Origin: Microthyrium microscopicum
Taxonomy: Eukaryota
Length of the DNA stretch: 64,000 nucleotides
NCBI GenBank assembly: GCA_010405405.1
Contig: MU004231.1
Span: forward strand, 2,713,923-2,777,922
Reading direction: 5' to 3'
This document shows, piece after piece, positions 19,481 through 64,000 of this stretch. Each line of letters opens with the position of its first letter. Position 1 is the first letter of the stretch. The position numbers were made by a program, and so were the translations under genes. The notes beneath the pieces are model-generated. The model did not search any database and was not told the origin of the DNA. It saw only the letters and a list, made by a program, of their open reading frames with translations.

Positions 19481-21287
19481 GTTAATAAAGTAAATTAATA
19501 CTTAAGTAATAGCATTAATAATAAAGTTAATTAAGATAGCACTACTAGTAAGCCTAAATATATATATAGATTAAAAAAGAAGTATTAATAAACTATAGTT
19601 TCTAATATTAAAGCGTAATTCTCTATAATAAAGAATAATAAATAGGTTACCTAGTTTATATTAACTTTAACTATCTACCTATATCTTAAAGATAAGAAAA
19701 ATACTTTTAAAGTTAATAAGAACGAAAATAATATATAGAAAAATATTATAATTCTAATAGTTAAAACTATCTACTTCTTACTAAATAATCTAATTATAGA
19801 GAAGAAAAAAATAGACTAAATAGTTACTAAGTTTTCTATAGTTATCTTAGAAAAGCAACTTATCTAATTAGCTTATAAGATTAATTAAGACATTAAATAC
19901 TATAGAAGTATACTAGCTATAAGCTATATAACTATATTTATTATTAAGATATACCCTAATCTATTAAATAACCTTTTTTAAGTCTACTCTACTATAACTA
20001 GTAATTTAATAGTTAGTAGTAAGGATACTAAATTTAACCTACTTCTCTACTATCTCTAATATACTATTTAGAATTAATACCTTATAGTCTTCTAGTTCTT
20101 TAGGATTAATGCTAGCCTAGCTATACTTATAGAAAAGAATCTTCCTTAGCTAATTTCTTAAGATATATAAACTAATTTAGATATTATTCTTACTAACATT
20201 AATTATCTATTTATAAATAGTGTCTTTAGCCTATAGAAGAGTTATATCGCTCTCCTAAATAATTATAATAATTTTATAAAAGTAAAGAATAACGGAATTA
20301 TAAGTTTATTACGTATAGTCTATCCTTTAGTCCTATATCTATTTATAGCTTAAAGTATAAATCTAATAGAATAGCTTTATTAGGCGTATAAGTAAAATAA
20401 GGCTCTTTATAATACTATATTACGCGCTACTAAAATACTAGAAAGCAAAGACTATAAATTCTTAGTAAGCCTTAATTTCTATATTATAGTAAATAGACGC
20501 GAATATCCTTATTTTTAAGAAAGTAACGTCTATATAATCTAACTTAAGCTAGAAACTAGACTTAAAAGCTCTTAATTTACTACTAAAATTATTAACTAGG
20601 ACTATAATATTTAAGCTACCTATAACGTATTTATAATTATATACTATCCTTTTATTATACCTAATAATAAATATACTAATAATACTTAATTCTCTTTATT
20701 TTAAATCCCTAAAGAAGTTATTATTCTTCTAGACTATAGCTAATTAATTAAGAATCTACGCGAGGCCTTCTTTAAACTAAAAGGGCTAAAGGTTAAAGTA
20801 TATATATATAATTTAGATAAGCCTATTATATATTAAATAAATAATCTTAACTAGGCGTAGTTAAGATAAAAAGAATATAACCTAAATCGCTACTTTACTA
20901 TAGTACTTAGCTCGTACTTAGACTTCTTAGAATATTAGCTTTTATTAAAGAAGATTTTTACTATTTATATCTTACCCTCACTTCTTAGAAAGATAAAGTT
21001 TAACGTTATATTAAAGCGTACTAAAGAAGTATTAATAAACGCTAACGCGCTAAAAAAGTTAACTATAAAGGTTAATAAAATATAAGAGGATGCTCCATTA
21101 AGCGGCTCGTTCTTTAGTAATATTAAGAACGACGCGTTAAAATCTTTAACTAGTTAGACTAAAGAAACTTTAAAGAAAATAAGTGATAGTTTTACTTTAT
21201 AAAAGCTAATTAATAAGTTACTTAATCTAGATTTATTTAACTATATAACTAAATCTTAGTTTAAATAAGAATTTAAAGCTAATAATA

Positions 21288-21683
21288 ATAGTATTTCTTA
21301 TCCTTCTTCCCTCTCTATCTAAGATAACGTTAATATAGAATCCTTAGATACTACTATAGTGGCGCTTCTCTATTCTACTAACAATAGTACCTCTTAGCCT
21401 TCTCACCCTTCTATCTAAGATGACGTTAATATAGAATTCCTAGATACTACTATAGTAGCGCCTTTTTATCTTAATGATAATAGTACCTCTTATCCTCCCT
21501 CCTTCTCCATCTAAGATAATATTGATATAGAATCCCTAGATACTACTATAGCAGCGCCTTTTTATTCTACTAATAATAGCACTTCTTATTCTCCCTCCTT
21601 CTCTATCTAAGATAACGTTAATATAGAATCCCTAGATACTACTATAGCGGCGCCCCTCTATTCTATTAATAATAGCACCTCTC
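21288..21683 (+). repeat. 4 x 96-bp (32-aa) tandem repeat within the SF1 helicase ORF
   Basis: Anchor tagaat at 21336, 21432, 21528, 21624. De-RIP unit ~DSTSHPPSFSIQDDVDMESPDTTMAAPLHSTD. Confidence 0.92.
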
Positions 21684-21736
21684 CCTTTATAGAGTCTTAA
21701 GCTTAGGATTAATAGACCAAGCTAGAAGTTACTAAA

Positions 21737-22035
21737 GCTAATAGTGAATAAGGTTAGTAATTAAAAGCAGCTAATAACGAATAGAGTTAGCAATTAAAAA
21801 CAGCTAATAACGAATAGGGTTAGCAATCGAATATAGCTAATAACGCTAATAATAATAATAATAATAATAATAATACCTATAAAGATATACTTAAAAATAT
21901 TTCTAATTCTAATAAATAGTTAGACAATAAGATCACGCCTATAAAAAACACTAATAATATTAATAATAGTAATACTAATAATAATAATAATAATAATAAT
22001 ACTACTAATATTAATAATACTAATATTAATAATAA
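21737..22035 (+). repeat. 3 x 33-bp repeat followed by (AAT)n tracts
   Basis: gcta anchors at 21737, 21770, 21803, 21836. In-frame AAT runs at ~21,845-21,875 and ~21,955-22,035. Confidence 0.85.
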
Positions 22036-24779
22036 TTAGTACTAATTGCTAAGTACTTTCGTAGGACTAGGCATAGCTATTTCTATATAATTACTAAAGA
22101 CTAACTTTAGAATTACCTTAGAAGAGATTTAAAATCTTATAAAAAAGGTAGAATAGATTAGTATTATAAAGGCTCTTTATAAAGATTAAAAAGAGTTTAT
22201 TAATATTATTTTCTTAAAAGGCGGTAAGGGTAGACTTAATATCTGCTATACTAGGCTAAAATATAGTAAGACTAAAACTACGAAAGCTATAATAGTAATA
22301 TTAATCGTCTTTATAATATTCTATTTTAATTTTAAAATAAAGATTTTAGCTATATATACTACAAACGTATAATTAAACAACCTTATTACTAAGTATATAA
22401 ATATCTATATAGAAGTTAATTCTATAAATCTTTTACGATTTTTTACTATTTAAGAATACTTAATTAAGATAAAGAAATCTATTACCTTAAGGAAATTAAA
22501 AGAGGTATAAATCTAAGTCTACTAAAATTAAGGTCCTAGTACGTAATAGTAGAATATAAATAATATAGATAATTATAGTACTAATATTTTAGATACTAAA
22601 ATAGTATTACTTACTAAATAGCATAGTACTTACTATTTATAATAACTCTACGTAAATACTAAATATTAAGACTTTAAAGGTATCTATAACCATCGTATTA
22701 AATATCTTAAATACTTATTTAGGGAATTTATAGATTAAGCTAGTAAGATAATTAGCGTAATTAACTTAATAATAGGAAAGCAAGAATATAATATAGATAT
22801 AGCTACTAAAGAGTCGCTTAATTATACCTTTAACCTTTAAATTCTTAATAAAAAGTATTATAGTAAAGAAAAGCTCTTAAAGTTAGAAAGCGCTAATTAT
22901 AGTAAACTACTACTAAATATAAAGCAATATTATTTATAATTAATAATTACTTTTCTTAGTTTTATAAACTATAACGCCTTATAAGAGCTTTTCTAAGTAA
23001 ATTTTATAAGTATTAACTTATAAATTTGTAATAAAGTAGTAGTATTATATAAATCATAGATAATAGCTATTATATCTCTATATAAACCTTAAACAATTAT
23101 ATAGACTAGAGATTTATTCTAGCCTAGATTTATTTATAATCTTAAACATAAAAAAGCTACGTTTTATAATAGTTTTTAAGCACTATTAATATGCAACACT
23201 ATAGCGAACAACTTTAGCTAAACTATACTAAAATAAGTATTTAGATTTAATTCATCGTACTATAATCTTCTTAATAACATAGGCTATAAAATTCTTAAAT
23301 ATACTAATAACGATAACCCTAAATTTAACTAACTATAATATATTATAAACTAACTTTTTCTATTCTTAGAACGCAGAAAAGACACGCTACTTATAATATT
23401 TATAAATATTAAAAATAGTAAAGTTAAAAAGGACGTTATTAGTTTAAGTTCTAATACTTATAACGCCTATATTATAGCCTTTATATAGATTAAACTTCTA
23501 CTATAAATATAATTAAAAGGCGTTAATACTATAGTTATTATTCCTTACCTTACGTAAACTAGCCTCTATATTGAAACTAAAGGTTAGCTACTTAAATAGG
23601 TTACTATGTATATTTAGGATAATTATACATATACCTAGTAAGACTATTAAGATATACCTTTATAATTTAGCTAGGTTCTAATAACTACCTATAATAATAG
23701 CTCTAGTACTAAGCGTAATTAGAATCTTATTAATCTTATTTAAAAAGATTATATTAGTTTCCTTATAGAAAACTTATAAATAAATGCTATAGCATCTTAG
23801 GGCCACTTATCTTTATTCTTTAGTAACTTAAAGCTTTATAGTACTATAATAGCCCTTAGTGCTAAGAGATAGAAAGAGTTTAAACAATCTATACTTAGTA
23901 GATTATTAAAGTATTTTATTAATAATAGCTATATATAGTATATACTATTCGTTAACAATTATTCTCGTTAAAATCTAGAGAAACTTAATATTTCTAACTT
24001 TAATAGGATAGTTTCTTATCGTAAGAAAGAGCTAAATATATATAAAGAGATTAAAACTATTATACTTAAAGAACTAGAGGTAATTAGAGATCTTATAAAA
24101 CTAACCTTACTTTATAGTTTTAAACCTAAGGGTAAAGAATTTAAAGCTAATAAAGCTAATAAAGAAGGTAAAGTTAGTAAAGATTAGTAATAAAGAATGG
24201 TAATAAGAAAAAGGATAGCAAGAAGGTTTAAGTTTAAAATAAGGTTTATTTAGCTAATTAATTAACTAACTTAGATAGTATAATAGTTAGTACTAAATAG
24301 AAAAAGGGTTTAGAATAAAGGAGTTATATAAGTAGGAAAATTTAATAAAAAAGGATATATAAGGAGGTTAGACTAAAAAGGTAGATAGAATAGCACTATT
24401 ACTAGAAAAGTTAACTTATTAAGCTAGTAATTAATAATATAAAGTTACGCAATGCGTCTCTAACGTAATATTATAACTTATTAGTTATATAAGATTAGTT
24501 AGTATCCCTACTTAGTCTTAGTATTAGCTATCTAAAATATCTAGAAATATCTAGCACGTCTAGAAATATCTAGTAAGTAAAGGTATATTATATATATAAC
24601 AAAATATTATTAGGTAATATTCCTAGAAGTTAACTCTATTACTTAAGCCTTAAAATACTAAGTAAAATTAAACGCTAATTATTGCTAGTATAAATTTAAT
24701 ACTAGATTTACTACTTATATATTAAGGATGTACTTATATCTTTAAAAGTTAATAAGAACGAAATAGGTATAGAAGTTAA

Positions 24780-27700
24780 TATACTAGCGTAATCTTTTTA
24801 GTATTATATATAATAATAGAGAAAGGTAATTAGATATAAATATATCTAACTTATACGTTTTAGTTTCCTAATATATATTTAACCTAAATAAGTTATATTA
24901 CTATTCTTATAGACTAATCTTCTTAAACGTAGGTATATTAAGTTTTCTAAACGATATATAATTCCTCTTTACTACAAACCTTTATAATTATCTCTAAAGG
25001 CCTTTTAATTAAGTATAAAGGTTAATACTAGTAATAGAAACTCTAGTAAGAGAACCCTTTATAAATAGTCCCTCTATTAGTATAAGATTTACCGCTTATC
25101 TTAATTATAACTATGCTACGTCTAAAACGCCTATAATAAAAAATAAGATAATTGCGCCTTTTGCTATATCCTTATCTTTAACTACCCTTAAAGCTATAGA
25201 AAGAGTTACTACTCTAATATAGTACAAACCTAGTTCGTAAGACAAGATAGATAAGGCTAATAAGTCTTAAAAGTCTAAGAGTAGTATATAATATATAGTT
25301 AATAAAGTTATTATATACTTATAATAAAATCTAGGATATTTAGTAAATATACCTATACTAGCCTATAAAACTAATAAAAGCTACGACTAAATTAATAAGC
25401 GTAAGTTACTACTCTAAGATACTATTAAGATAGAGTACTAATATTATCGTTTAGAAAGAGAAAAGCTTTATAAAGAAGTAAAGCTATAGAGTTAACTAGA
25501 GAAAGAACTAAAGTTTACTAGTTAAGTAGTTTCTAACAGTGCGTTAAAGAATAAAATAAATAAGTTATTCTAAGGAATAGCCTTTAGAAGTAAAATATAT
25601 AACTTACTTAATTAGAAGGCAAAAGATTATAAATTACTAATAGAAAATATTAATAACCTTAAAGGCTTTATACCTAGCTAGTAGGAAGTAATACTTAAGG
25701 GGCTACTATATAATAAAATAAAAAGTATTAAAAATCTTTTAGGTAATAAAGTTAAAGTATACTTTTAAAGTATCTTAAAGGTTATTAAATTCTTTATTTC
25801 TTATAGGCCTTTTACTAAAGACCTCTACTTTAAGCCTATAATATAAAAAGATAAAAATAGCAAGTATATCTATACTAATACTTAATTAGTAGAAAAGTAG
25901 TAAGAATTATAAAATAAGATTAATTTAGGTATTATGCTTATCTCTATTTACTAAGAATTAGATAAGACTATAATATCTAAATAACGTAGTAATAACTATA
26001 TATAAGCTTACTATATAACTATTTTTAATTTATTAGAAAGTATTAGAAAAGCTATAAGAAGACTAGAATTTCTCCCTATTATAATACTCTCTAGACTAAA
26101 AGGTATAGACATTAATAGTAAACTTAAAATATTTTATAACGCTATAGATATTATATTTAAAGGTTTAATACTACGCATTTAAGTATTATAGAGCTATTTA
26201 CTAATAAAATATAGAACTTAGAATAGTCCCTAAGAGTAGTTACGTTATAGCGACTACTAATAACTAATTTTAAAAGTATCTTTTAATTCTTACTTATATA
26301 AGCATAAATTATAAAGAGCTTATTATAATTATAAGTATCTAGTCTAAATATTACTATCTTATTTACTTAGTACTATAACTATATTAGTAAAACCTTATTA
26401 GTAAATAGGCTTATTAGACTTATATAACTTTATAAGAAAATATATTAAAGTAAAAAATACTTTACTACGCTAATTAAAAAAGAGAGTATACTAAGTAGCT
26501 TACTACTACTAATAATACTAAAGGTAAAGACTATATCTATAAAATTTATAATTTTACTTAGAATTATTCTTTATTAAATATTTATATAGTAATCGCTTTT
26601 AATCTACTATATATATTCTTTTTAAATAGACTNNNNNNNNNNNNNNNNNNNNNNNNNNNNNNNNNNNNNNNNNNNNNNNNNNNNNNNNNNNNNNNNNNNN
26701 NNNNNNNNNNNNNNNNNNNNNNNNNNNNNNNNNNNNNNNNNNNNNNNNNNNNNNNNNNNNNNNNNNNNNNNNNNNNNNNNNNNNNNNNNNNNNNNNNNNN
26801 NNNNNNNNNNNNNNNNNNNNNNNNNNNNNNNNNNNNNNNNNNNNNNNNNNNNACTTTCTAGCTATAAGTTATATAATAAGAATATACTTAAATATATATA
26901 AGTCTATTTATAAATTATAGAATATACTAAAATAGTAATATATAAGCATAAGACTTCTTAAGCTAGGTTTAAAAGGCTTAATTTCCCTAAGTTCTATAAC
27001 TTAATCTATCTTATACTATCTATTTATATATTTAGCACTATAGATAAAACTAGTTCTAGTATTATAGAAAAGTTATATTAAGAGTATACTATACTAGTAA
27101 TAAAATAAACTAACTTTTAATCTAGTTAGTACGTTTAGATAATCTATTATCTTACTAATCACATTAAGAATATAATCTAGAATAATAATAATAACTATAA
27201 CTATTAAGTCTATAATATTACTAAAAAGAAGATTACGTCTAAAAGAACTCGTCCTATAATTATTCTATTAAGTACGCCTAAATATAGTTTATAACTCTAA
27301 TTATATTATATAGACAAGCTACGTAATAAGGGTATTTATAAATCTAGTATATTTCTTACTAAAGACGTTAGTAAATAAGCTAAGCTTAATAACCTTAAGG
27401 GTTATTTATATAGCTAGTTAATTAATCGCTATAAAGAAGACTTTAAGAAGCGCTAATCTTTTCTAAAGCTAATACTATTATATATATAAAATAAAGAAAT
27501 ATACTTAGATAAAGATCTTATTAACAATGAACTAGACTTTATATACTCTAGTAAAGTATTATATCTTAACGCTTTCTAGCTAAGTTACCTTATTATAATA
27601 CTATATAGCAACATAATCTATATAATAGATAATAATAAGAATAATATACAACCTTTTATAGCTTACTATAAATAGGAATAATAGAAAGGTAAGAATAATA

Positions 27701-28440
27701 GTTAATAATATAGCAAAGTCTTAACTAAGAACTACTAGCGACGCGACTTTATATAGGCTTAGGCCTATCCTATATCTAAGAAAGAGCTTAACGATAATTT
27801 TAGTCTTTTAAGTTAACTTCTTATATAATTACTTATTATTTATATAGTATATAATATAAATTAAATAATAAGAGATTTTAAATTATAGCATAGATACATT
27901 AGATTTTTTATAGCTTTAGTTTAGAAGTATATACTAATCTTAGAAAAAGCTATAGAACTTATATTTAATAGGCTATTAGGTCTTATATTATTTAAGCTAA
28001 CTATAAAATTAAAAGTATATAAACTAAATAAACTATTAACTATTATATATATAGTTCCTTATAGGGACTTAAAGTATCTTAATTACTATTAGTTAAATCT
28101 ATACCCTAATTATAATAATTATACTAGAATATATAACCTAGTTACTTTTAATAAATAAGGAATTAAGGTAGCTAAGACTAAAATTATAGCAAGACGTAAA
28201 GCTTTAGAGAGAAAGAATAAAAAGCTCTATAAAGCTTAGATTAAAGTTTATCTTAAGAAGCTTATTAATAAAGTAAAGAGAATAAAACGTAATAATAAAA
28301 AAGAAGTAGAAAACAAAGAGAATAAACTAAATAGTAATAAAGAGAGTAAGTAGAAGACTAATAAAGATAGCAAAGAAGAGACTAATAATAATAGCAAAGA
28401 AGATAGTAGTAATAATAGTAAAGATATATAGTAAAATAGA
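24780..28440 (+). pseudogene. RIP-degenerate Plavaka-type (CACTA-related) DDE transposase
   Basis: De-RIP of ~25,790-26,090 gives FISHRPF.KDL.FEP...DENG.RIYTDTWSAEKWWELQ.KIDPG.MLIPIYWxSDKT.MS..RG...MWA.YMTIFNLPESVRK, matching the Plavaka WW..Q / SDKT / YxTIxN signature. Then PILA...DYEE...GI....CPIC.VP (~26,280-26,375) and AFDPLH (~26,595). After the gap, LNFPKFHNLIH...FG.....EKLH (~26,975-27,080). Acidic C-terminal tail. Probable introns near 24,830 and 26,165. Confidence 0.88.
26633..26852. other. Assembly gap (220 N) inside the transposase; further 10-N gaps at 35,060-35,069 and 40,809-40,818
   Basis: Runs of n in the sequence. Confidence 1.
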
Positions 28441-33399: not shown

Positions 33400-33975
33400 T
33401 ATTACTATAGAAGTTACCTCTATAGCTACTATCTTAGTTCTTCTATATCTTTACCTTAACTACTATAGAATTTACCTCTATTATTATTACCTTTTTCTTT
33501 ATCGTCGTCTTAACTATTATAGAATTCGCCTTTATTATATATTCTATATATCTTAAAGCCTTTAATATTTTAGTTAGCTTTATAAGTAAAGTAGTAGAAT
33601 TATATTAAAGTTTAGAAGTAATAAGAAGAAAGAAGATAGAAATAAAAGATATAGCTAGGTTATTATTAGAGCTACTAAGTAGATATTAAAGGAAGCGTAA
33701 TTAATAATAATAATAATCGCTACCTTCTTCTTTATTAAATTTATTTTCGTATTAACTACTATAGAATTTACCTTTATAGCTGCTATCTTCTTCTTTATTA
33801 AATTTATCTCCACCTTAACTACTATAAAATTTGCTTTTATAGCTATTACCTCTTTTTTTATTAAATCTACCTCTACCTTAACTATTATAGAATTTATCTC
33901 TATAGCTACTACCTCCTTTTTTATTAAACTTATCTTTACCTTAACTACTATAAAATTCACCTCTATAGCTACTAT
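33400..33975 (-). repeat. ~60-bp (20-aa) tandem repeat in a RIP-degenerate minus-strand ORF
   Basis: Unit ttaactactatagaatttacctctatagctactaccttcttctttattaaatttatctccacc recurs. It gives rise to track ORF 33655-33960. Confidence 0.8.
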
Positions 33976-35380: not shown

Positions 35381-36100
35381 CTATATTAGTACTTAACTTA
35401 TAACTTTCTATATATTAGTTAATATTAACGTTAGTAAGGTAGCTTTCTACCTTAGTAAGCTACTACCTAAGCTTATAATGTCCTATTAGGGTAATTATAG
35501 TACTACTAATATGTATAAATTAGCTTAGTTCTCGTTTTATATTTACGTAAAACTAACCTATCTAAAAGAGTAAAAGAATAAAGCTAGCTAGGTAGTTATA
35601 TAAGCGAAGAGTATATATAGCTTAGCCAACGTTAATAATAACTACTTCTCTAATAAGAAGTTATTACCTAATCCTAATCCTATACTCAGAGAACTAATAT
35701 AAAGTTTCTATATTTAGTATAAGCTACAACTACCTACTATTTATATTAGTACTTAACTTATAACTTCCTATATATTAGTTAATATTAACGTTAGTAGGGT
35801 AGCTTTCTATCTTAGCAAGTTACTACCTAAGCTTATAATATCTTATTAAGGTAATTATAATACTATTAATATATATAGATTAGCTTAGTTCTTATTTTGT
35901 ATTTACGTAAAACTAACCTATCTAAAAGAGCGAAAGAATAAAGCTAGCTAGGTAGTTATATAAGTAAAGGATATATATAGCTTAGCTAACATTAATAATA
36001 GCTACTCCTCTAATAAGAAGTTACTACCTAACCCTAATTCTATACTTAGAGAACTAACGTAAAGTTTCTATATTTAGTATAAGCTATAACTATTTACTAT
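35381..36100. repeat. Tandem duplication, 2 x 360 bp
   Basis: ctatattagtacttaacttataact at 35,381 and ttatattagtacttaacttataact at 35,741. The copies align throughout and differ by transitions. Confidence 0.92.
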
Positions 36101-36479
36101 CTATAGATTATTATCCTTATCTAGCAATCTATTAATAACTAGCTATTCTAGCTTTACTATATTTATAATAAGAACTTAAATATTTTAATAGAAGCTTATC
36201 TTCTTACTCTTAAGAATATACTTAATAGCTATAATTTCTTTATATACTTATAAAAGCTAGCTAGGCTAAGAACGTTAGGAAGCTATCTAATTGCTAAGTT
36301 ATTCTTTACTATCACTTATTTAAGCTTCTAAAGCACTAACTACTATACCTACTATAGGAATATTTAAAGGCTATAATCTTATTACTAAAGCTTTAGGTAA
36401 TAATACTAAAAATAAGTTTAGTACTTAAATAATCTTAATTATATTAGAGTTAAGGTAAACGTAATTATTATTGCTATAA

Positions 36480-39400
36480 ATAATTATTTTAAGTATCTAA
36501 TCTACCTATCTATAAATAAAGTTAAGGTAGTCTTTAGCTACTTCTTTAATAAGTTAGGAATATAGATATATTTATTAACGTAATTACTTAGTTTTATACT
36601 TTAACTTTATAAGAATATATACTAAATACTTAAAAGGAAAGTGAAGTTAATAAGAGATAGACTTAGTAGTAAAAAGTATAGAATATATAAACTCTTTAAC
36701 TACTTTAGTTAATAAATTAACCTCTATAGTTCTTAACTTAGAAAGTATAACTTATAAGTATATAAGATTTATTAGTAATTAGCTAATATATATTCTAGAA
36801 ATATTACTTACTAATAAATGCTTTAGAGTCTTAAAATTCTCTAATTACTTTATTACTAAAACTAGTACTTAGCTTATAAGAATCCCTTATAGTACTATAA
36901 TTAAATTACTTTTAGCACGTTAGTAAATTAATAACTCTAATATTATTAGATATTCCGCTTTTCTTTATAAAAGCTTCTCTATTACCTAATTTATTTATTA
37001 GTCTTAGACTAAGAAAATACCTACTACTACGAAGTAGGCTTTCCTATCTTAATAATTAGTATGCTTTTGTTAACTTAAGAATAGCTACTTTTCTTAATAA
37101 TATTTATTAGATTACTAAGTCCTTACTAATATAAGAATTATAAAGATACTAAATCCTTAACTCTAGCTTTATATAGTATTCTTTAACTATATCTATTATA
37201 GAGGAACCTCTTTCTTTATTTTAGAGGAAGAGCCTATATAGGACGCTACTAAAATATTTAAAGAAATATTTAAAAAAATCTAGTCTATTTACTATTACTT
37301 TTATTATTATAATTAACTAATACACTACTAAAGATACTATTACCTTACCTATTCTTAATATCATTACTACTTTATCTAGGTACTAAATATATCTAAATAT
37401 AATAAAGGTTGCTAGTAAGCAACATTCTTATACGTAGTAACGACTCCTAGACGACTATTATTACTTTAAGTATCTAATCTACCTATCTATAGACAAAGCT
37501 TAAGGTAGTCTTTAGCTACTTCTTTAACTAGTTAGGAATATAGACGCATTTATTAATATAATCGCTTAATTCAACTATAAAGACGATATACTACTCACTT
37601 AGTAGAGCATAAAATATAAGAATAACGCTATCTTAACTAGGAAGGAAAGGTTATTACTCCTTAGTAACTACTTTAATAACTACTAAGTCCTTAAATACGA
37701 CCCTAGCTTTACACAGCGTTCTTTAACTATATCTATTATAAGGGAACCCTTTTTATTATTTTAGAAGAAGAGCTCATATAGGACGCTACTAAAACAACTA
37801 AGAAAACATTTACCTACTTAATATCTCTATCATATCACTTAAGTATCCTTACCTAGTTTAATAGCTATATAATAGTACCTTTATTAGACTAGAAATAGTA
37901 AATAAATCTCTAACTCCGCTAGTTACGTAAAGAGATAAGTAGTACTATACGATTAAAATAATAACTAGGCTGCTTTTAGCTTAATTTATATACCATTTAC
38001 TATTACTCTTATTATTATAGTTAATTAATACACCACTAAAGGTGTTATTACCTTACCTATTCTTAATATCATTACTACTTTATCTAAGTACTAGATATAT
38101 TTAGATATAATAGAGGTTACTAGTAAGTAACGTTCCTATATATAGTAACGACCTTTAGATAACTATTATTACTCTAAGTATCTAATCTACCTACCTATAG
38201 ATAGAGCTTAAGGTAGTCCTTCTTTTACTATATCACTTAAGTATCTTTATCTAGTTTAACAGCTTATTAAAGGCATTTATAAAGGCTTATAGTATATTAA
38301 ATATTTCTTCTCATTATTAAGCAAAATCGTACTAAAAATATATTCTATCTAATAAATTCTTTAGACTTTAAATCTAATACGCGTATAAATTACTAGAGTT
38401 AAGAACGCTACTAGAAGCTTCTTAAGTCTAGCTTAACAAACTATATAATAGTACTAGATATAGAAATTTTTAAAGGAAACTCTCTTATTCCTATAAAAAA
38501 GACAATTTAAGAAAGAAAGAAGTTAATAACGCCCTTTAAGTAGCGTAGGGTAAGAAAGACTTCTTTAGTATACTATAACTAATCTTTAATATTAATCTCT
38601 ATTAGATTAGGAATAGCAAATAAATCTCTAACTTTGCTAATTACACAAAAGAGTAAGTAGTACTATATAATTAAAATAATAACTAGGCTACTTCTAGCTT
38701 AATTTATATATTACTTACTATTACTCTTATTATTATAGTTAACTAATATACTACTAAAGGTACTATTACCTTACCTATTCTTAATATCATTACTATTTTA
38801 TCTAGGTACTAGATATATCTAAATATAATAAAAGTTACTAATAAGCAACATTCCTATACGTAGTAATAACCCTTAGATAATATATAGTATTAAGAGTTAT
38901 AAGGCTTTATATAGAATTTTTAGAGTATATTATAAGCGTAATTAGATACGCTAAATAGATTTACTATTATAGACGCTAGTTATTACTCTAAGTATTTAAT
39001 CTACTTATTTATAGATAGAGCTTAAGGTAGTCCTTCTTTTATTATATTACTTAAGTATCCTTACCTAGTTTAACAGCCATATAATAGTACTAGATATAGA
39101 AATTTTTAAAGAAAACTCTCTTATTTTTACGAAAAAGATAATTTAAGAAAGAAAAAAGTTAATAATATTTTTTAAGTAGCGTAGGGCAAGAAAGACTTCT
39201 TTAGTATATTATAACTAGTTTTTAATATTAATCTTTATTAGACTAGGAATAGTAGATAAATCTCTAACTTTACTAGTTACATAAAGAAGTAAGTAGCACT
39301 ATATAATTAAAACAATAACTAGGCTACTTATAGCCTAGTAAGAGTAATATCTTACTCTTAGCATAATAAATATACAAAACCTTATCATAAAGAATTATAT

Positions 39401-40420
39401 AGTATACAAGACAAGCAATGCCTTAAAGCGTAGAGTAGGATTAAAAATAAAAGTCCTAGGTACAGGCGTTAGTAATACTATAATTAATAATAATACTAAG
39501 ATAATAGTTACTATTATAATCTATGTCTTAGAGACTAGTAGGATAAAAGCAGGTATAATAACACTTTATAATAATAAGGAACGTTATACGCAAACTTAGC
39601 TTAATTTATATACTACTTACTATTATTCTTATTATTATAATTAACTAATATACTACTAAAGATGCTATTACCTTACCTTACTTTACCTACTCTTAATATT
39701 ATTACTACTTTATTTAGGTACTAAATATATTTAGATATAATAAAGGTTGCTAGTAAACAACGTTCCTATACGTAGTAATAACTCCTAAACAACTATTATT
39801 ACTCTAAGTATTTAATTTACCTATTTATAGACGAAGCTTAAGGTAGTCCTTAGCTACTTCTTTAATTAGTTAGGAGTATAAACATATTTATTAACGTAAT
39901 TACTTAATTTAACTATAAAGGTAATATATAGCTTACTTAGTAGGGCATAAGATATAAAAATAGCGCTATCTTAACTAAAAAAAAAAGGTTATTACTTCTT
40001 AGTAACTACTTATAGTAGTAACTACTAAGTCCTTAAATACTTCTTTAGTTAGCTATAACGAATATAAAAGATATATCTTTCTACTAGGTCTAGGAGATAA
40101 AAGCCTAATTATATATCCTACTTATAACCCGCTAGAACTAGAATGATAATATTAAAGGCTAATTAGAACATTTAAAAAAAATAGACTATAAAGGCAATAT
40201 ATAGCTTACTTAGGGCGTAAGATATAAAAATAGCAATATCTTAACTAGTTAGAAAAGGCTATTATGCCTTAGTAGCTAGTTATATAGTAATCTTTAATCC
40301 CTTTTCCTAAAAATTATATTTTCTATCTAAAAATCATAACTACTTTATCTAAGTACTAAACATATCTAGACACTAATATCTAGATATATCTAGACATATT
40401 TAGACATATTTAGATATATA
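36480..40420. repeat. Mosaic of shuffled 100-250-bp repeat modules (subterminal region)
   Basis: Module taagtatctaatctacctatctatag..aagcttaaggtagtc at ~36,490, 37,467, 38,175, 38,988, 39,805. Module attactctttattattatagttaactaata...ccttacctattcttaatatcattactactttatctaggtac at ~37,295, 38,000, 38,720, 39,620. Confidence 0.85.
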
Positions 40421-40507
40421 GAAAGTTACTAGTAAGCGTTATTTATATCCTATTATACGTAGCTCTAGCTATAATAAATTTACTTAAGTATAGTATAAGC
40501 TATACTT

Positions 40508-41030
40508 AAATAACTACAATATACTTAATAAATTTAAAATATTTTAAATAGTTTTATAATATTTCTAATAAAGTATATAATATCTTATACGTATTTAATA
40601 TCTTTATAATAAGTTTAAAATAACTATAATATACCTAATAAGTTTAAAATATTTCGAATAGTTTTATAATATTTCTAATAAAGTATATATTATCTTATAC
40701 GTATCTAATATTTTTATAATAAGTTTTAAATAACTACAATATACCTAATAAGTTTAAAATATTTTAAATAGTTTTATAATATTTCTAATAAAGTATATAT
40801 TATTTTATNNNNNNNNNNTACCTAATAAGTTTAAAATATTTTAAATAGTTTTATAATATTTCTAATAAAGTATATATTATCTTATACGTATCTAATATTT
40901 TTATAATAAGTTTAAAATAACTACGATATACCTAATAAGTTTAAAATATTTTAAATACTTTTAAAATATTTCTAATAAAGTACGTAATTATCTTATACGT
41001 ATCTAATATCTTTATAATAAATTAAATATA
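40508..41030. repeat. >=5 x 110-bp tandem array next to the terminus (contains an N-gap)
   Basis: Anchor taacta(c/t) at 40511, 40621, 40731 and 40918, with ~20-bp internal sub-periodicity. Confidence 0.9.
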
Positions 41031-41159
41031 ACTTTTCTAGTATAATACGTAGTCCAATTTACGATGCATAATAATTTTTTTACGATGTATTTTGTGCCCT
41101 CTAATTTTAATTAGGCTATTATTTAGCTTCTTGCGGGTTGAATATACTACTACTAACGT

Positions 41160-41183
41160 TTATTTTAAAACGAGAGAGCAGTG
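41160..41183 (-). repeat. Candidate right terminal inverted repeat (5'-CACTGCTCTCTCGTTTT on minus strand)
   Basis: Plus strand reads aaaacgagagagCAGTG|tgtctagagg. CACTG/CACTA is the canonical CACTA (En/Spm) terminus. The site coincides with the break in the Copia pol frame. Partner TIR not seen. Confidence 0.65.
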
Positions 41184-43533
41184 TGTCTAGAGGTGGATCA
41201 CGAACATAGGCTTTTAAGCTAATAATTTAGACTAACGAGAGATTTAGCACTTGTTTAAACACTATCTTAAAGGGTGTTCTCTAGTTTAGCTACTTCTTTA
41301 GGATCCTATTAAGTAGATATATTACTAAGCGAGCGAGTTTAGGCTATAACGTATCTAAAAGGCTACTTTATTATTTTAGTGCCCTTATAATAGATATTAG
41401 GATTTGTCCTAATACTTCTATAGAACTATTTTATAAAGCGATGTAAGGTATAGATAGTTCTTTAATAATACTATTTAGCTAGATCTCATTATTCTACTTC
41501 TTACCTATTATAGCCTTATAATCCCTATAGATTTAAAGGACCTTATATTTAATATTATCTACTTTATAATCTATATTCTTAATAATAGCAAGTACGTAGC
41601 GTAGGAATTAAATATAGTTTTCTTATATCTTTTAAGGAAGTATTTCTAATAGATAGAACTTTATAATGGTATAGTAAGTATAGATAATTTAGTAATCATT
41701 ATTATAGCCTTTCTTAACCTAAATTAAATTGATATAAAGCTTCTTAAAAGGCTTTAAGCCTAAATCTATTAGTTAATAAAAAATCTATTTTTTCTACTTT
41801 ATTTTAATATAGATTTTATAGAAATAGTCATTATTTTTAGTATCTTTAGAAAGGGTAACGTTTAGAGTAATTTTTATGCCTTTAGTAACGTATTCTATAT
41901 AAGATATTATAGCTTTACTAATATAACCTATTTATTAGTACTATTTAGATATAGAAGCTATAAAAGTATAAGAAAGTAATAATATTATAGAGAAAGTATA
42001 GTAAGGATTGTTTTTAAAAAGGAAGTAAATATTAGAAAGGATAATCTTAGTTAGAAGCTTTTCTATTTTAATGTGCCTAATCTAGCCTATTTTGTTGTTT
42101 TAGCAATATCTTATAGCTTTTATTCTATAATAGAAAGCTAAATTCTTATAGAAGCTAGGTATATAAGCAACGTTATAGAGAGTAACTATTTAGTGTCCTT
42201 TAGGGCCTAAAATAGTAATATCTATATTGCTATATCCTATAACTTATAAGGAGACTCTATTATAGATTAAAGAACTAAGAATACTCTTATATATCTTAAA
42301 ATAAGATTTATTATTATAAATATATATATTTACTCTAGAATTAAGAATAAACCTTCTATTAGGAGATATTTTAACTACTATAGACATTATAACTCTTATA
42401 ACTACTATTCTAATATTTATATATTTAATTATTTTAAGTAGTTAGTTATTATTATTATGCTCTTAATTATAACTTATTTTAAGGATATAATTAACTCTTA
42501 CTTTAAGCTAAGGATTCTTAAGGCTTTCCTTAATTTTTACTTCTACTTTAAGGTTAGGATACTATCTATTTAGATATTTATTAGGTTAAAGATAGAAATA
42601 ATTATTATAATATTCCGTCTTACTATAAAGATAAGAAAAAACTATCTTTTTATTCTTTTAAGAACTCTATAATCTAGACGTTAAGGAAGGTTAATAAGCG
42701 TTTATATTTAAGGAAGTCTTCTTAAATTAAGATATCTCTTTCTAAATCTTTTTATTAAGGGTAGTTATAAAAGTAATACTAGATTATAATACTAGTATAG
42801 TTTTCTTACTATAAATAGTCTAATACTTCTTAATATACTCTAAAAAAGTAAGTTATTTACTTTTTATATAATAATAAGTAAACTATATCTAGGTACTAAA
42901 GTAGAAAGCTTAAGTAGCATCTATAAAGGTATTTATAAGCTATTTCTTAGAAATTTCATCCTTATTATAAAGAGAACTTTTTCTTTAAAGGAATATCTAG
43001 TAAATTAGCTAAAGTTATAGTTCTTATTATTTATACCCCTTCCTTAAGGTATTAAATTCTTTATCTAACTTTAAGATTATGCTAGTTTAGGAAAGATAAA
43101 TACCTTTCTAAAGTACTTAAAGTATATCTTAAGCCTTAAAGATATTAGTAACGTAATTTTAAAAATTTTTAGATACTATCTTATTTAGGAAGTCGTTAAT
43201 CTTAACTATAGCGTTTTTAGTGTTTTAGTACTCTTAGTAGTCTAAATTATATATCTATAATAGGATATTATATTCTTAAGCAAGAATTAACTCTACTATT
43301 TAAATAAGTTAATCCTTACTATTCTCTATAGATACTTAAGAAATAGTAAATTCTACTAAGCGTATTTTAGATAGACGTACTAGTTCTTTTAGAAGAGAAC
43401 TAGTTCCTTCTAGATTAATATAATCCTACATATCTAGAGCGTATACTTACTATTTTATAGAGTTAATCTAGATATACTAGTTATTATTATTCTTTAATAT
43501 AACTATTATAAGGAGATCTCTAATAGTTACTAT
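41184..43533 (-). pseudogene. Copia gag-pol (gag, protease, integrase), RIP-degenerate and interrupted
   Basis: Motifs as listed for the element. Probable start codon (ATG>ATA) at 43,533. Confidence 0.8.
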
Positions 43534-45332
43534 TTTTATTAATTCTTCTATAAGATTTATATAGTATACTTAAGAATAATACCTAGCTTTCTATAAGGAC
43601 TAATATCTTTAATATCGCTCTAATTAAGAGGTAGGAACGCTACTACTATATTAAGTTATTATAGCTTATTCCTTTAGCTTAGTAGGCTATTTTAGAGATT
43701 CTTCTAATTTAGAGGAATTATCTTAATATATAGAAGAAGAAGAAGAAGAGGTAGAGAAAAAGAGAAAGAAAGTATTTTATACCCCTAAGGATTAAGGGAT
43801 TACCTATTTAGATAATTTACATTAAGTCTATTTAGAAAGAGTATATATAAGCTTATAATAAGTACTTCTTAGTAGGTTATTACTTCATTTAGGAGATACT
43901 ATCTTAGTGTCTCTATACTTTTATTTAAGAAATACTACCTTAGTATAGAGAAAGAAGAAGAAGAGAAAGAGAATAAGTAAGAAAAGAAAGATATTTATAC
44001 CTTTTAAGCCTTTAAGATTTCCTCTTTAGGTAGTTTAGGCCTAGCGTTATATCTCTCTACTTAAGAATAGAATATAGAATAATTAGATACTTATATATCT
44101 TTACTAAATACTTTTTCTACTCTACTTAAGAATAAAACATAGAATAATTAAATACTTATATATCTTTACTAAATATACCTTCTAGTTATAGCGTACTAAG
44201 CCTAGACTAAAGTGCTAAGGTTAAGTTAATAGTAGTAGAATTACTAATAATATTCTATAGAAATTTAAAACGTACTTAAAAGTAGTATAGGTTTTAGTAC
44301 TACTATAGCTAAGATAGTAAAGAGGTTAAGTCCTTAAAGTTAAGGAATAATAATAACGATTTATATAACACTAATAGTAAGTTTCTCTAAAAAACCTACT
44401 TAGTAGCTTAAGTCTATAAGAAAGAAAGCAGTAAGTATAGTAATATAGTCGCCATTAAAGAGTTAAAAGGCGTTATCTAGTACTACTAATACTAAGGCTA
44501 TTAGCGTACTAAGATAGTAAAGAGGTTAAGTCCTTAAAGGTAAGGACTATTAATAGTTAAATCCTTAAAATTAAGAAAGCGATAGTAATAAAAAAACTAT
44601 TAAAGACTAGAGGACTAAATAGTAACTAAAAATAGTAAGAAGTATTGCTTATACTTTACCTCTATAAATACTAAGGCTATTAGCATATTTTAGTATTACT
44701 AATGCTAAGGCTATTAGCGTATTAAGAGTTTAAGGGAGTAATAGCTTTTAAAAAACTATTAAGATTAAGAATATGTTAGAAACTTAATAGTAAAGGTTAT
44801 ATAAACGCTAAATATAGTAAGAAGAGTACTAGTAAAGGCGTAAAGCTTAAAGTACGTAATAAAGAAGAGAAGAAGAAGAGAAAGAGAGAAAAGGATTAAA
44901 AAATATTTATACCTTTAAGATTTATAAAATTACCTTTTTAGGCGATTTTCTAATTTAATTTACTAATTCCTTACTCTTTCTTACTATTAAATAATATAGT
45001 AAGGTTTTCTTATTACTTCCTAATAATTTAAATAAGTATTATAAATAGTAAAGTAATAGAGAGAAATATAAATTACTATAGAAGAAGATAAATAAAGTAA
45101 AGTGCTTCTTAACTTTAACCTAAAGGAGTAGTAGCTCTAAAGAGTAGTTCTAGCTTTAGTAATAATTATAAGTTTAGAAGTAACGTTATAAATTGATTCA
45201 TAACTTAATAAGTAAGTTTTAATATTAAAACTAGTATATAGTAATAGCTAAAATTTAGGAAATTATAATAATATAGTTTATAAAAGATTTACGTATAGAA
45301 TAATAAAATAATAAAAATATATTAGAATATTA

Positions 45333-45637
45333 GGCTTATAACTAACGAAATATAATTTATATAGCTTAGGAAATATAGAATTAGTAAAAGGAATATTAAA
45401 GAATCTAATTAACTAACTACTATAATAACTATAGTATTTATATCTTATTAAAAACGTAAAACGTATTTTCTTAAAGCCTAGAATTTAGGCTATAATAAAG
45501 GTAAAAGTAATATATAGAAAGGGATAGAAAAGGCAAAAAGATATAATAGCCAATAGAGGCCGAATTTTAGTGTTTCCGCTTCCTAATCCTAGATTAGGAC
45601 TAGCGCAGATCTAGGGTTTGGAACGAACCTTCTGTCA
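45333..45637 (-). repeat. Probable 5' LTR (~45,345-45,637) and primer-binding site (45,333-45,344) of the left Copia
   Basis: Minus strand tagttataagcc de-RIPs to TGGTTATGAGCC, a Copia-type tRNA-Met PBS. Candidate LTR start TGACAG at 45,637, where composition changes. No second LTR is available to confirm. Confidence 0.55.
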
Positions 45638-45648
45638 TCTGGATTCAC

Positions 45649-45668
45649 ACGCGTTGGCCTGTGACGTA
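45649..45668 (+). promoter_or_regulatory. MCB-like ACGCGT and CRE-like TGACGT upstream of NDC1
   Basis: ACGCGT at 45,649-45,654 and TGACGT at ~45,663, about 200 bp before the NDC1 ATG. Motif match only. Confidence 0.35.
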
Positions 45669-45858
45669 GGAGAAACTGAGCTAATCTACAAAGAGTAAGT
45701 AGCTTACACGCTAGTACCCTAGCTTCAACCTTAAATCCAGGACAGCAACACCACCAAACTTTTGGTTGCTCCCAGTAAACACGACTTGACGACCTTCACA
45801 AACCATGACTTTGCCATAGACTTTCTCCCACAACATCTCTCTTCGCATCCCTCTCACG

Positions 45859-48070
45859 ATGGCTCCACCGCCTGGTGTCAAACCTCGGCCCTATCGCAAC
45901 TTTCTCCTCCCCGCCCTTCATCGACAATATGTGCACGCCGCGTTATTGTCCCTGGCCGCATGCTATCCTCCCGCAGTTGTGTTGAACAATGCCGAGTCCA
46001 GTACGTCTTAAACCGACAATACATCTAGCATAAATCGCTAATAGGTTCGCAGTGTTCTGGCGCATAGTACCGTCTGCTATATTATGGACTTTCATTGTTT
46101 TCATCGTTGCGAACATGGGCCTCTTTCTAGTTCGCCTGGAAGCGATGCAATGTAAGTCCATCTTCACCTTCCGTGCTTCGAAGCACTAACATTTCCCAGC
46201 AGGTCCAACTACATTGTCTCTACTCCAACGAATTCGAAGCTCCATCTTTACCCGCGTTCCATACCTTACATTTGGCTGGTACCTCTTTTCTGCAGTCGCA
46301 TTTGCCGAACTCTACGTTTTGTCAGCTCCTACTGAGAGCAAACTATACTTTGTGTATGAAGGACGGCACAATGAGCGCGATCAACTAAACGAAGGTGGGA
46401 TCTTCTTCAGATCTCTTTTTCCCATCCTGGCTTTTGTTCAAATTGCAATGCATCTGTGGTACAAGCAGAGCCAACTCGACTTGCCCTTGGACAAACTGGA
46501 CGTGACCGGACCCAAGACTGCATCACAAATTGTTAATATCAATACTGTGCTCAGCATAGGTCTCGAGTCGCTAACCAAAAGCGCTATGGCTGCTGGAATT
46601 GGCATGTTCAGCTACTTCGCATTTACCCGTCAATCGTTGTTCGAGTTTTGGTTGAACATTTTCAGATTTCAGGGATGGAACTTCTCCAGAAATGTCTATC
46701 CGAGGGGTGTAGACCATATCCACGTAGTTCTGATAAGATTCATCTTTGCTGGGTTCATGCTCACCTTCCTATGGGCCTTTACAAATCGCGCATTTTCAGC
46801 CTACATGGTAGAACAACCACTAAAAAAAGGCCAGCCTCTGACAAACGACTCTAAGGATCCAAACGGAAGCTTGATTCAAGGTCTAACTGAGAGACGTGGT
46901 CGGTTTAGGGTAAGCCTTCTTCATAACGCGAGTAGAGCTAGTCACTAATGACAACAGAGTCGAGCTTTCTGGGAGCTTTCCCTTATCAGCAATCAATTCG
47001 AGGCGCGCCGCAAGACCATATTCACCGAACTCGATCGCACTGGCAAAAGCTCATGGTCGCAAATCTACACTATCTGCACCGCAGAAATCAAGGATATCAA
47101 TGCCCGCATTGGAGCTTACAACGCATCACTTCAACCATCTACCCCAGAAAAGCTTCCGGAAAAGGAAAGACTTCCCGCATATGTCAAGAAGACTGCTACA
47201 AAAGATGATGAACTCTATTCAAAAGCAATAATGCGTAAGTCACTAAGCGAAAGTGCTGGAGAAAAGCTTGGGAATATTGTCAAGGGAAACAGTCCAGGGG
47301 CCGCCAATCCGGCTCTTCAATACGCGGACTATATGCTGCCAGACAAAGCGCGTGCAGAATTGAATCCAGAGGCATTAAGAGAGCGTGCCAGCGGATGGGT
47401 TGCATGGCTTCTTCGCACTCGCTATGCTGCTCCATTCGTCCAGACCTTCGTCATGAAAACCACTGCAATTATATGTGGCTCACCGGAAAGCAACGCAAGC
47501 ATCATCATTGATGCCATCCAGGCCATAACCGCCCTGGCTCAGCACAGTATTTCCGAAGACTCACCTGGTCAGGTTCAAAAAGACCTTCCCGCTCTTGCTC
47601 GGCTCCTGGCTGAGACCATTACCAATATCCAAACCTTCCTCAGAACCGCATCACCGCATTGGACAGACGTTAATTTCTATGAAGCCCAGCGGCAGCAAGT
47701 TACTGAAGTTGAGACGGTCGTGGCCGCCCTTAGAGAGGGTCTTGAGACCATCATTCGCTCTTTTGGTGAATACTTTGGAACTCTAGGGATCAAGCCCAAC
47801 GAACGAAGAGATTGGACCCGTCTCCTTGGTGACTCGGAGCTCTTGGAAACGGCTCGCTCGCGTGGGCCTAGCCAGCCCATTGCTGCAACACGGACGCCAT
47901 TGAAGGAACGCGTTAGAAATGCGTATCGTTCTCGATCCCGTAGTCCGGCTCGAGCGCGACACCCTCGGAAGCCACCAATGGAACAAGTAGAGCCTGCGCC
48001 TGCACCACGACGAGGTCAAGCGCCAACTGTAGAGTCGGAGCTTGAAGAAGATCCGTTCTTGGCTGCATGA
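45859..48070 (+). CDS. NDC1: Nucleoporin Ndc1/Cut11 (4 exons: 45859-46000, 46053-46151, 46200/46203-46909, 46958-48070)
   Basis: N-terminal RPYRNFLLPALHR, several TM helices, PLKKGQPLTNDSKDPNGSLIQGL, AFWEL..IS......R..IF and SISEDSPGQVQKDL. GT-AG introns with CTAA branch sites join the track ORFs in frame. Confidence 0.93.
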
Positions 48071-60930: not shown

Positions 60931-61570
60931 TTTGATGCTTGTCATGAAGTAATCGGTACAAATAAGTGTTCGGAGGAAGATAGTATGTTATCTGATCTGT
61001 TGTTGGTTTAGTTCCAAACAGTGCCTGCCAAGCGGACTTTATAGTGTAATTACCTGGCATCAAAAAAGGGTTGGCGGAATCTATTCCTTACCCGGGTAAA
61101 GAGTAGGTTGTCAGCGTTGGTAATCGACGTCTCTTGTATAATATGTCGGTTTCAGCGAATTAGCCTTACAGAAACGACCTTAGCTGCAGGATGGAGAACC
61201 TCAAAATTGACTCAACCATTAGGCTGCGACTGTTGATAAGCAGGTATGCATATGTCGGGAGCCAAAAGATACAACGTTTTGAGAGTCAGCGAGGCTGGAA
61301 TTATTCAGCCGGCCTTGTGTATGAAAAATGGCACTAATCTCCGGAGTGGAGTGTATTCCGCGATTGCTAAAAAAACAGAGCTCCGCTTGATAACACCAAC
61401 CACAAATCTGAAGCTCAACATGAGCGATAATTTTAACTGCAAGAGTCGTCACGCTACTCTATTGCTTCAAGCCTTCTAGTAAATTACGAAGCTATTTTGC
61501 GGTTCACATAACTCTTTTGATGTAGAGAGCAGTGAAACGACTTATACCGTATTTCTTATTAAAGGTGCGA

Positions 61571-64000
61571 TGTGAAGGGATGGCAGCCGCATAATGGATT
61601 ATGTAATCAGATGGGGTTAAGACCTACTACCTAACGGTAGGACTCTATCGCTTCTAATCTAACTTTGTTATCCTAAATATTTCCTTTATTAATAGGTTAT
61701 AATAACCCTTTTGAGCCTCTTCTATTAATAAATTATTAGATTTATATTTAATCTATTAATTTTCTATTAGCTACTACTAATTTATTATAAAAATAAGCTT
61801 GCTAATTATCTACCTAGCTCTAATTATTAAAACTTAACCCTATAAATTAATAGCTTATTAACTAATATTAATTTTTATTAAAGTTCTATTATCTATTAAT
61901 AGTTTGCCTTATTTTATTAGTAAGTAACTATCGTAAGTAATTATACCCTATTATCTTTACTTTATCTTATTCCCTTACTACTCTACTATTATATTAATAT
62001 TTAGAGTTAACTAGAGTAGTATACCTAAGCTATTAGCTAATAGTAATAACTTTATTAAATAGTATATATCCTAAATATATATTCTTAAGTATAATAAGTA
62101 CTTTAATATTATTAAGAAAAAGCCTACTAATCTTAATAACGTTATTAATAATAATATTAATACTAAAGCTATAATAATACTACTTAGTAGCATATATAAT
62201 AAATACTAGCTAATAATTACTAGCTTTAAGTTTGCTACTAACGCCTAGTAATAGCTAGTAGCAAAATATAATTAAGATACTAATAATAATACTATCTTTT
62301 AATTTTGTACGCTTACTAGCCTACGTTATAAAGATAGTAAAAACTTAATAGACTACCTTAATAACTTCTATTAAATCTAGACTTACTTATATAAGAAATG
62401 TATTACCTTATTATAGCTTGTTACTAAAGCTATAAAAGCAATTTTTAAAAGCAATAAGGTAAAAGGCTTATTCTTTCTAATAATACTACTAGATACTATA
62501 AACAACGTTATTAATAACTTTAATATAAAGAATATCTTAAAGTTTACTACTATTAAGCTAAAGATCCTTAATATTACTAAATGCTACTTTTTTAACTTTA
62601 TTTAGAGTATAGCGTACTATAGTAAGAAGACGCTTAAAAGCTTATTATTTAGTAAGTAAAAAGTCTATACCTAGTACTAAAGTAAAGGTTTTACTTTTAT
62701 TAGCTACTTTTACTTAGATTATAAATATTTTACTAAGTATAAGAAAAAGAAAGACGTCTTTAATAATAGTAAATTAAAGACCCTTGCTAATAAATCTAAA
62801 GCTTCTAGTAAGATAAAAAAACTATTAGAAAATTGCTAAAAGAAGCCTAGAGCCTTAGTAAGGCTTACTAAGGATTCTAATATTAAAAAGGTCTATAGGA
62901 ACGACTCTAAAAATAATATCTAGATTGTTACTACCTTTAGCGTAGTAATATATATTAACGTAAATAGTAAACGCGTATATATAAGTTTTCTTCCTAGTAA
63001 TAAAATTAAAATACTTTATCTTATTAAACTAATAATAATTCTACTAAAAGCTACTACCCTAGCTATATACCTTTATATAACGCTATAAATTTTTAATATA
63101 GGCGCATTTAGATATATATTTAGATTTATTAAAGATTTTAATAGTATAAGAAAGTATACTAGTATAGTACGTATTATTAATAGTATTAAACTACTAATCT
63201 AAGAAATTAAAAATATCTTACTATATTATTATTTACTTAATAGGTTAATATCCTTTATTAAACTAACTAATACTATCTATAGTTATAAATTTATTAATAC
63301 TAGATTACTAAGCTAGACTTACGTCTATAAAAACTTTTGCCTAATAGTAGAGAATAATAACCTATTTATTTTCTTTCTTACTAGAATAGTAGTTTAGATA
63401 AAGTATAAGGCTAAATCTCTATAGATCTAGCTTTAGTAAGAGACGTATACTACTATATAAGTAGTAATATAACTATTCTTATTATACTAGGAATTTTATA
63501 AGGCTATTAAATATTTAAATATTAGTAATGCTAAACGCCTATATAGTAACTTTAAAGCTATCCTAAAAATACTATATAAGTTTTACTATAAAGCGTATAT
63601 TACTATAAACTTAAAGCATATAATACTAAAATTGTTACTAGAGTAACTAAGCTCTAAACTATTTAACTTTATCTATTCTAATCTATTTAAATAACTTCTA
63701 AAGTCTATTAGTAGTAACTAGTACTTCTTTATCTTTATTAATAACTATATATAATACTCCTAAATCTTTTTTATTAAGAAAAAGTCTAATATTATAATAA
63801 TTATAGCTTACTTTATTACTTAAGTAAAAACCTAATTTAGTATTAATATCCTAGTATTTATTAGTAATAATAATAGTAAATATATTAATATAAAAACTAT
63901 AACTATAATTAAGGATAAAGGAATTAAAGTTATCTATTTACTAACTTACTTCTATAAAAGTAATAGCTTACTAGAATAATTTATCTAAATAGTCTAGAAT
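61571..64000 (+). mobile_element. Ty1/Copia LTR retrotransposon, RIP-degenerate, continuing beyond the window
   Basis: De-RIP protease WIFDTGAxRHM (~63,085-63,118), H.AIGHLN (~63,500), CEAC (~63,588), PFDFIHSDL (~63,660), YFFIFIDD (~63,725), SDNGGEY (~63,865) and ESNGLPER (~63,960). PBS-like ggttata at ~61,695. LTR start uncertain (61,521, 61,571 or 61,602). Confidence 0.88.

Follow-up and report, generated by a model that had tools for sequence, protein, structure and literature searches.

The window examined here, meaning the whole 64,000-nucleotide stretch of Microthyrium microscopicum DNA that was analysed, corresponds to C2:2,713,923-2,777,922, where C2 is the numbering of the contig that holds it. 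From 1 to 45,500 the window carries a RIP signature at 16-29% GC, ordinary fungal genes follow at 46-61 kb, and a second AT-rich, RIP-mutated block begins at 61,600-64,000. RIP together with the genes points to a filamentous ascomycete. The first block contains two nested elements: positions 41,090-45,637 (minus strand) hold the 5' half of a Copia element, and positions 1-41,087 are the window's part of a 43,454-bp PlavakaB-like element, which as a whole occupies C2:2,711,556-2,755,009 and extends 2,367 bp past the left edge of the window.

The interrupted Copia element

Fungal Ty1/Copia elements have TG..CA LTRs and the order protease, integrase, SH3-like domain, RT and RNase H, and both nested insertions and RIP are familiar among them. 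The Copia element in the window has the same LTR termini and domain order, and differs in carrying a 195-bp deletion and a 43.5-kb insert and in flanks that point to a TSD of 4 bp where 5 bp is usual. It is a Ty1/Copia element by its paired TG..CA LTRs and by an integrase that precedes the RT, with matches to PF22936 (Pol_BBD, E 1e-4) and PF25597 just below cut-off. The half in the window comprises LTR, gag region, protease region and integrase. The 278-bp 5' LTR lies at 45,360-45,637 (minus strand) and its partner, of equal length, at C2:2,709,001-2,709,278; the two are separated by 44 transitions and no transversions, and the 4-bp flanks of the element, TCCG and TCTG, by one base. With the insert taken out, the element is 7.1 kb long.

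The preliminary description of this locus had predicted that the RT, RNase H and 3' LTR half of the Copia element would lie beyond the left end of the giant element, and this is where it was found. Used as the query, the downstream portion of an uninterrupted Copia copy finds the continuation at C2:2,711,555 leftward, on the same strand and at the matching base and frame; Copia restarts 2.37 kb left of the window, exactly where the match of the window part ends. Left of the insert the pol frame is in register, and RT and RNase H motifs can be recognised by eye, while a Pfam search of this half returned no RT (RVT_2) match. The Copia element was already present before the giant element inserted.

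The 5' region of the Copia element (43,700-45,300) contains plus-strand purine-rich repeats and a 65-bp duplication at 44,055-44,184, and gag was not recognised there. About 550 bp separate the end of the 5' LTR from a gene for the nucleoporin Ndc1 (PF09531; window 45,638-48,070), counted to its first recognised exon. Elsewhere in the genome, three further Copia copies are likewise interrupted, by other inserts some 7-9 kb long, at C4:383,952/391,671, C2:4,387,062/4,395,834 and C7:998,070/991,120.

The supposed CACTG terminus and the pol deletion

A genome search with window 40,900-41,600 as the query, in which 40 of 43 candidates were scored, divides the query into three parts by the family matched. 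From 41,600 to 41,195 it aligns with other Copia copies; from 41,194 to about 41,090 it aligns with Copia copies again, after an offset of 195 bp in those copies; and from about 41,088 down it matches a different repeat family. Sixteen Copia loci were fetched, 15 of which span the site of the offset (L016 stops earlier), and one further spanning copy was taken from C7. The extra 195 bp is carried by all 15 spanning loci and by the C7 copy (16/16) and is lacking only from the window copy, where an in-frame deletion of 65 codons has its junction at 41,194..41,195 on the minus strand, with an uncertainty of 1 bp. In the undeleted copy L004 the 195-bp segment falls inside a match to the SH3-like PF25597 (E 5.5e-06, 26.6 bits, just under the cut-off of 27), and the deletion takes out most of the SH3-like domain behind the integrase.

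In the preliminary description this junction was taken for the end of the giant element. The minus-strand Copia frame was said to read ...IISLKAYVRDPPLDTLLSRF, which a re-reading of the sequence bears out (the frame also reads ...IISLKAYVRDPPLDTLLSRFKINVSSSIFNPQEAK), and then to enter foreign DNA at a CACTG at 41,183, or alternatively at CACACTG at 41,185, as a terminus of the CACTA type; the RIIGSK given there was an interpretation, the actual DNA giving XIISLK. Such a reading draws on the presence of the 5-mer, which is the sole minus-strand CACTG between 25,541 and 46,050, and on the KLxxR..G.LIGY segment expected after the integrase, which is indeed absent from the window copy; its absence, however, marks the 195-bp deletion and not the point of insertion. 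The 13-mer CACTGCTCTCTCG at 41,183-41,171 (minus strand) lies within Copia pol, and the same site is present in 14/14 other Copia copies, as transition variants only and in none as the exact 13-mer. Copia goes on for another 95 bp beyond the supposed end, the window being 74-85% identical to 14/14 copies over 41,194-41,089 and only 37-45% identical over the next 60 bp, and the CACACTG also lies within this Copia-matching sequence. Because the site occurs in 14/14 copies and Copia identity runs on to 41,089, the CACTG is Copia sequence with its CpA and TpG retained, and the junction there is an ordinary deletion. The true boundary is at 41,087/41,088, about 95 bases away, and 11/11 other right ends of the giant element stop there as well, the left end being CATCG; a terminus at CACTG or CACACTG has next to no likelihood. 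Both observations named in the preliminary description as speaking against its own reading, the presence of the site in other Copia copies (here as transition variants) and a different end in other giant copies, have thus been made. A second CACTGCTCTC at 61,525-61,534, whose match ends at 10 bp, was taken as chance.

The RIP signature was described earlier as locally weaker at this junction, and the index (CpA+TpG)/(ApC+GpT) agrees, reaching 0.65 at 41,001-41,200, the highest value of any 200-bp bin in 36,001-45,600. At variable columns the window copy retains C/G at 27 of 29 positions in 41,300-41,195, where 14 other copies retain 12-20, and at 30 of 42 in 41,194-41,089, where they retain 12-26. 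As the window copy also retains more C/G than nearly all other copies at 41,600-41,301, the weaker RIP is partly a property of the whole copy; near the junction, it may also result from the shortness of uninterrupted homology there.

Between the deletion and the TSD of the giant element remain 105 bp of Copia sequence (41,090-41,194, minus strand). A link between the two events is conceivable because they lie only about 105 bp apart and the deletion, found in 0/16 other spanning copies, is unique to the window copy; the loss would then be a scar of the insertion or of its repair. This is unlikely, as the TSD and TIR are clean, the 105 bp between are intact Copia, and the deletion junction shows microhomology of 1 bp at most. 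Nor does the lost segment have intron ends: its removal as a spliced intron was rejected, GT/AG being absent on both strands. The deletion and the insertion are most likely separate in origin.

Ends, copies and short derivatives of the giant element

At the true boundary, the TA at 41,088-41,089 abuts a right TIR of 20 bp (41,068-41,087, minus strand) beginning CATCG, and the second copy of the TA is at C2:2,711,554-2,711,555; uninterrupted Copia copies, which supply the empty site, have a single TA. Outside to inside, the left end reads TA followed by CATCGTGAAAAAATTATCAT and the right end, inverted, TA followed by CATCGTAAAAAAATTATTAT, with 18 of 20 bases equal between the arms and both mismatches transitions. 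The short TSD anticipated earlier is therefore one of 2 bp, and the junction, as had also been expected of it, gives the size of the insert, 43,454 bp as assembled, including about 2.5 kb of N runs. The earlier view that a CACTA-like giant element interrupts the Copia copy holds as far as the interruption by a CMCT (CACTA-clade) element is concerned and fails in the terminus, since CACTA/CACTG termini are not present and the ends are CATCG.

The genome contains 12 right and 12 left ends with CATCG termini in common and different flanks. The 11 right ends other than that of the window agree with it from CATCG (41,087) inward and lose the match at about 41,088; their flanks are unlike the window, and among themselves the flanks have a repeat in common in a single pair only. 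When ends are paired, eight full-length copies of 42,722-49,401 bp result, leaving four right and four left ends unpaired, 4/8 of which have a contig end within one element length. The other seven full copies align collinearly with that of the window at some 90% identity, and no intact giant copy was found in the genome. In the longest copy (L121/L120, C2:304,059-353,459; 49.4 kb), which contains many N runs, roughly 7.3 kb of additional DNA sits close to the left end. One left end (L064, C12:1,328,839), for which no partner was found, is more diverged (84%) and possibly belongs to an older subfamily.

Repeat analysis of the giant element revealed a subterminal tandem repeat with a 110-bp unit at 40,508-41,033. 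Internal repeats also occupy 35,381-40,000, in the form of a 360-bp duplication and a dispersed block with 708-912 bp spacing that has another copy number in the C7 copy, and arrays of 60, 108, 96 and 63 bp, periods divisible by three, are found at 4,284-4,644, 14,430-15,131, 21,279-21,682 and 33,720-33,974.

Nine short elements of 0.7-0.9 kb have both giant ends. A family of about 0.87 kb (L080-L089) shares with the giant element its TIRs and 70-90 bp at either end, several of its copies being richer in C/G at the ends; it is found at C14:53,128-53,999, C2:3,458,426-3,459,297, C2:4,069,345-4,070,216, C2:2,669,742-2,670,614, C7:713,711-714,584, C3:13,040-13,911, C3:2,842,057-2,842,929 and C5:11,262-12,133. 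Another copy of the same Copia (L086, C7:710,214) carries a 0.87-kb element at a different site from the insertion in the window, and the same TIR family has therefore entered the Copia family twice.

The 2-bp TSDs of the giant copies are exact in 7/8 (TA five times, GA and TC), the eighth being GC/AC with a G/A difference, and those of the short elements are exact in 8/9 (TA six times, TT and AA). Over all 17 end pairs, 15 TSDs are exact, one has the G/A difference and one pair, of a short element, is unmatched. Since TA flanks the window copy and 11/17 of the two-ended pairs, a TA-specific transposon (Tc1/mariner, ESTA or PHISTA type), or an insertion without TSD of an element with ACATCG ends, might be considered. 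Both are very unlikely: the four exact pairs other than TA (GA, TC, TT and AA), together with the near pair GC/AC, indicate that insertion is not TA-specific, the base outside CATCG is not fixed, and the transposase is that of Plavaka. An excess of TA would in any case be expected if the targets were AT-rich, RIP-mutated DNA.

In pairwise comparison, the copies differ by 2-33 transversions and 2,005-3,394 transitions per 22-33 kb, a pattern which argues for recent spread followed by RIP. It could be proposed that the 43-kb unit was non-autonomous, a composite whose own genes were dead before the spread and which a smaller, active Plavaka elsewhere mobilised in trans. That the ends are mobile in trans is seen from the 0.87-kb derivatives, and in four ORF stretches, where 300 codons bear a stop, 259 do so in all seven copies compared. 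However, independent and near-saturating RIP predicts 249.5 such codons, and the observed number therefore gives no sign of a template that was dead before it spread; furthermore, an intact Plavaka was not found in the genome by a search that is itself insensitive. Movement in trans of an already inactive composite is thus improbable, and spread of the giant element followed by separate RIP of each copy is preferred.

Transposase, accessory frames and relation to known elements

The transposase relic lies at approximately 25,640-28,250 on the plus strand, in two frames, which are taken to be two exons by comparison with intact relatives. When its stops are translated as X, the stretch 25,733-26,077 of the window matches PF18759 (Plavaka) at E 1.3e-05, and the same segment matches in 8/8 copies, at best with E 1.4e-10 and 41.4 bits against a cut-off of 26.3; the C-terminal segment by itself gave no Pfam match. 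A profile of the copies' transposase segments retrieved 34 proteins without a name at E values of 0.001 or lower, the best being 1.7e-12, and between the RIP-damaged transposase and the nearest intact relatives identity amounts to 20-30%. With a RIP-aware matrix, the first part reached 146-149 bits, the controls at most 37; scores for the second part were 162-187 bits in four copies and, in the window copy with its gaps, 101, the controls reaching at most 26; by RIP-aware scoring and DDE alignment, the middle segment is in frame with the C-terminal part. The first D of the DDE triad is retained in 5/8 copies, the second D in 5/8 and the E in 7/8, the remainder being N or K, one G/A transition away. 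Between D and E, the C(2)C and H(3-4)H positions are Tyr in 8/8 copies, as RIP would produce from Cys and His codons. Genome-wide family searches with PF18759 returned 0 candidates and missed even these copies, and one with PF02992 (Transposase_21) was null, both being insensitive to RIP relics. A metagenome scan reduced 79 pattern matches to two loci, one of which (L153:3,392-6,151) has an intact two-part Plavaka transposase with the break placed as in the window relic; a helicase-sized ORF or TIR pair is absent from the 9.6 kb of L153. By its PF18759 match and 2-bp TSD, the giant element is classified from sequence as a RIP-killed PlavakaB-like element.

Asymmetry in stop codons marks two more frames of about 1,600 codons each. 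ORF A (19,202-24,085, plus strand) displays motifs of SF1 (UPF1/DNA2-like) helicases by eye and was ranked with an SF1 profile built from the genome's own SF1 helicases, used as a plain HMM and in three RIP-aware settings. It is the top-ranked place in every setting, by small margins: E is 0.07 with the plain HMM, and the RIP-aware scores are 43-49 vs 35 bits and 27-34 vs 25-27 bits. Pfam, PDB and homologue searches with ORF A were null; the motifs and the ranking lend weak support to a cargo gene, probably for an SF1 helicase. ORF B (11,101-16,002, minus strand), which includes a 108-bp repeat, has SNF2-like motifs by eye; SNF2 profiles in all settings scored it not above controls, in tests limited by RIP damage, and Pfam, PDB and homologue searches were again null. 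No frame of at least 150 codons is free of stops common to all copies.

Starships are elements of tens of kb with several genes in filamentous fungi, and the giant element is alike in size and in carrying several genes. It differs in its DDE-family transposase, symmetric TIRs and 2-bp TSD, and no captain was recognised here, family-model searches having covered a part of the element (Pfam about 14 of 43 kb, in chosen frames).

A closer likeness is to the PlavakaB lineage of the CMCT clade, which has 2- or 3-bp TSDs and CATCA..TGATG ends according to the available text of Kojima 2025 (PMC12730594). The features shared with that lineage, as far as this source presents it, are a PF18759 transposase (PF18759 also serves as the Plavaka criterion in the part available of PMC8290104), 5'-CATC termini, a varying 2-bp TSD and short non-autonomous derivatives. 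The CATCG ends agree in four of five bases with CATCA, and PlavakaB-1_AuCo in the supplement likewise begins CATCG. The differences are the RIP-active fungal host and the size, 42.7-49.4 kb here compared with about 2-24.4 kb among those entries of that supplement that were covered here (longest 24,396 bases), the window element being about 1.8 times the longest Plavaka found in print; a TET/JBP gene was not recognised here, recognition being limited by RIP. In the red alga Bostrychia, Plavaka elements of 17.4-19.1 kb are called giant (bioRxiv 10.1101/2025.02.11.637652, available text); they are similarly large, with several accessory genes and tandem repeats, whereas the accessory genes described there are methylase/SET and ParB/oxygenase and not helicase-like. 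Plavaka from Tuber, in the accessible portion of PMC12581995, shares the ascomycete host, 2-bp TSD and TIRs and differs in its TIR motif, CATAC; an ascomycete host is therefore not new. The Styx/IS3EU group was rejected, as a 6-bp TSD would be expected by the text available of PMC10853768 and the TSD here is 2 bp.

The sequence of events that very probably produced the locus is that of a Copia insertion, a 195-bp loss and the insertion in one piece of a 43.5-kb PlavakaB-like cut-and-paste transposon. The 7.1-kb Ty1/Copia element would have inserted first, and the window copy would then have lost, in frame, the 195 bp of pol whose junction was noticed earlier; this order, like the independence of the two events, appears likely. 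The 43.5-kb element would subsequently have entered pol some 105 bp further along, at a TA, doubling it and moving the RT half 43.5 kb away. By analogy with the CMCT family, the element's own transposase would have acted by cut-and-paste, binding the TIRs and subterminal repeats (the 110-bp array), excising the unit and inserting it with a 2-bp staggered cut. The family would have spread recently to at least eight full-length sites, after which RIP would have killed each copy separately.

From the nested insertion come the size, the TSD, the two ends and the empty site, and with them an AT block erased by RIP becomes a definable element, a Plavaka-family transposon of approximately 43.5 kb, which has moved as a single unit on at least eight occasions. 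What is new is the size, well above the 17-24 kb found in print in the portions available of the sources above; no Plavaka of about 43 kb was found in the literature searched, and Repbase, subscription journals and other supplements may hold one. Screens for TIRs that stop at 20 kb, such as the one in the available text of PMC5751038, would miss an element of 43.5 kb, and the 20-bp TIR together with the 0.87-kb derivatives offers a direct handle on unmutated relatives. It is tentatively suggested, as a possibility with the balance still somewhat against it, that the element represents, as type member, a subgroup of giant Plavaka in filamentous ascomycetes, 43-kb DDE elements with an SF1 helicase and an SNF2-type remodeller as a standing module, which move intact with 2-bp TSDs. 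If this is true, such elements would constitute a Starship-sized gene vehicle that operates without a tyrosine recombinase.
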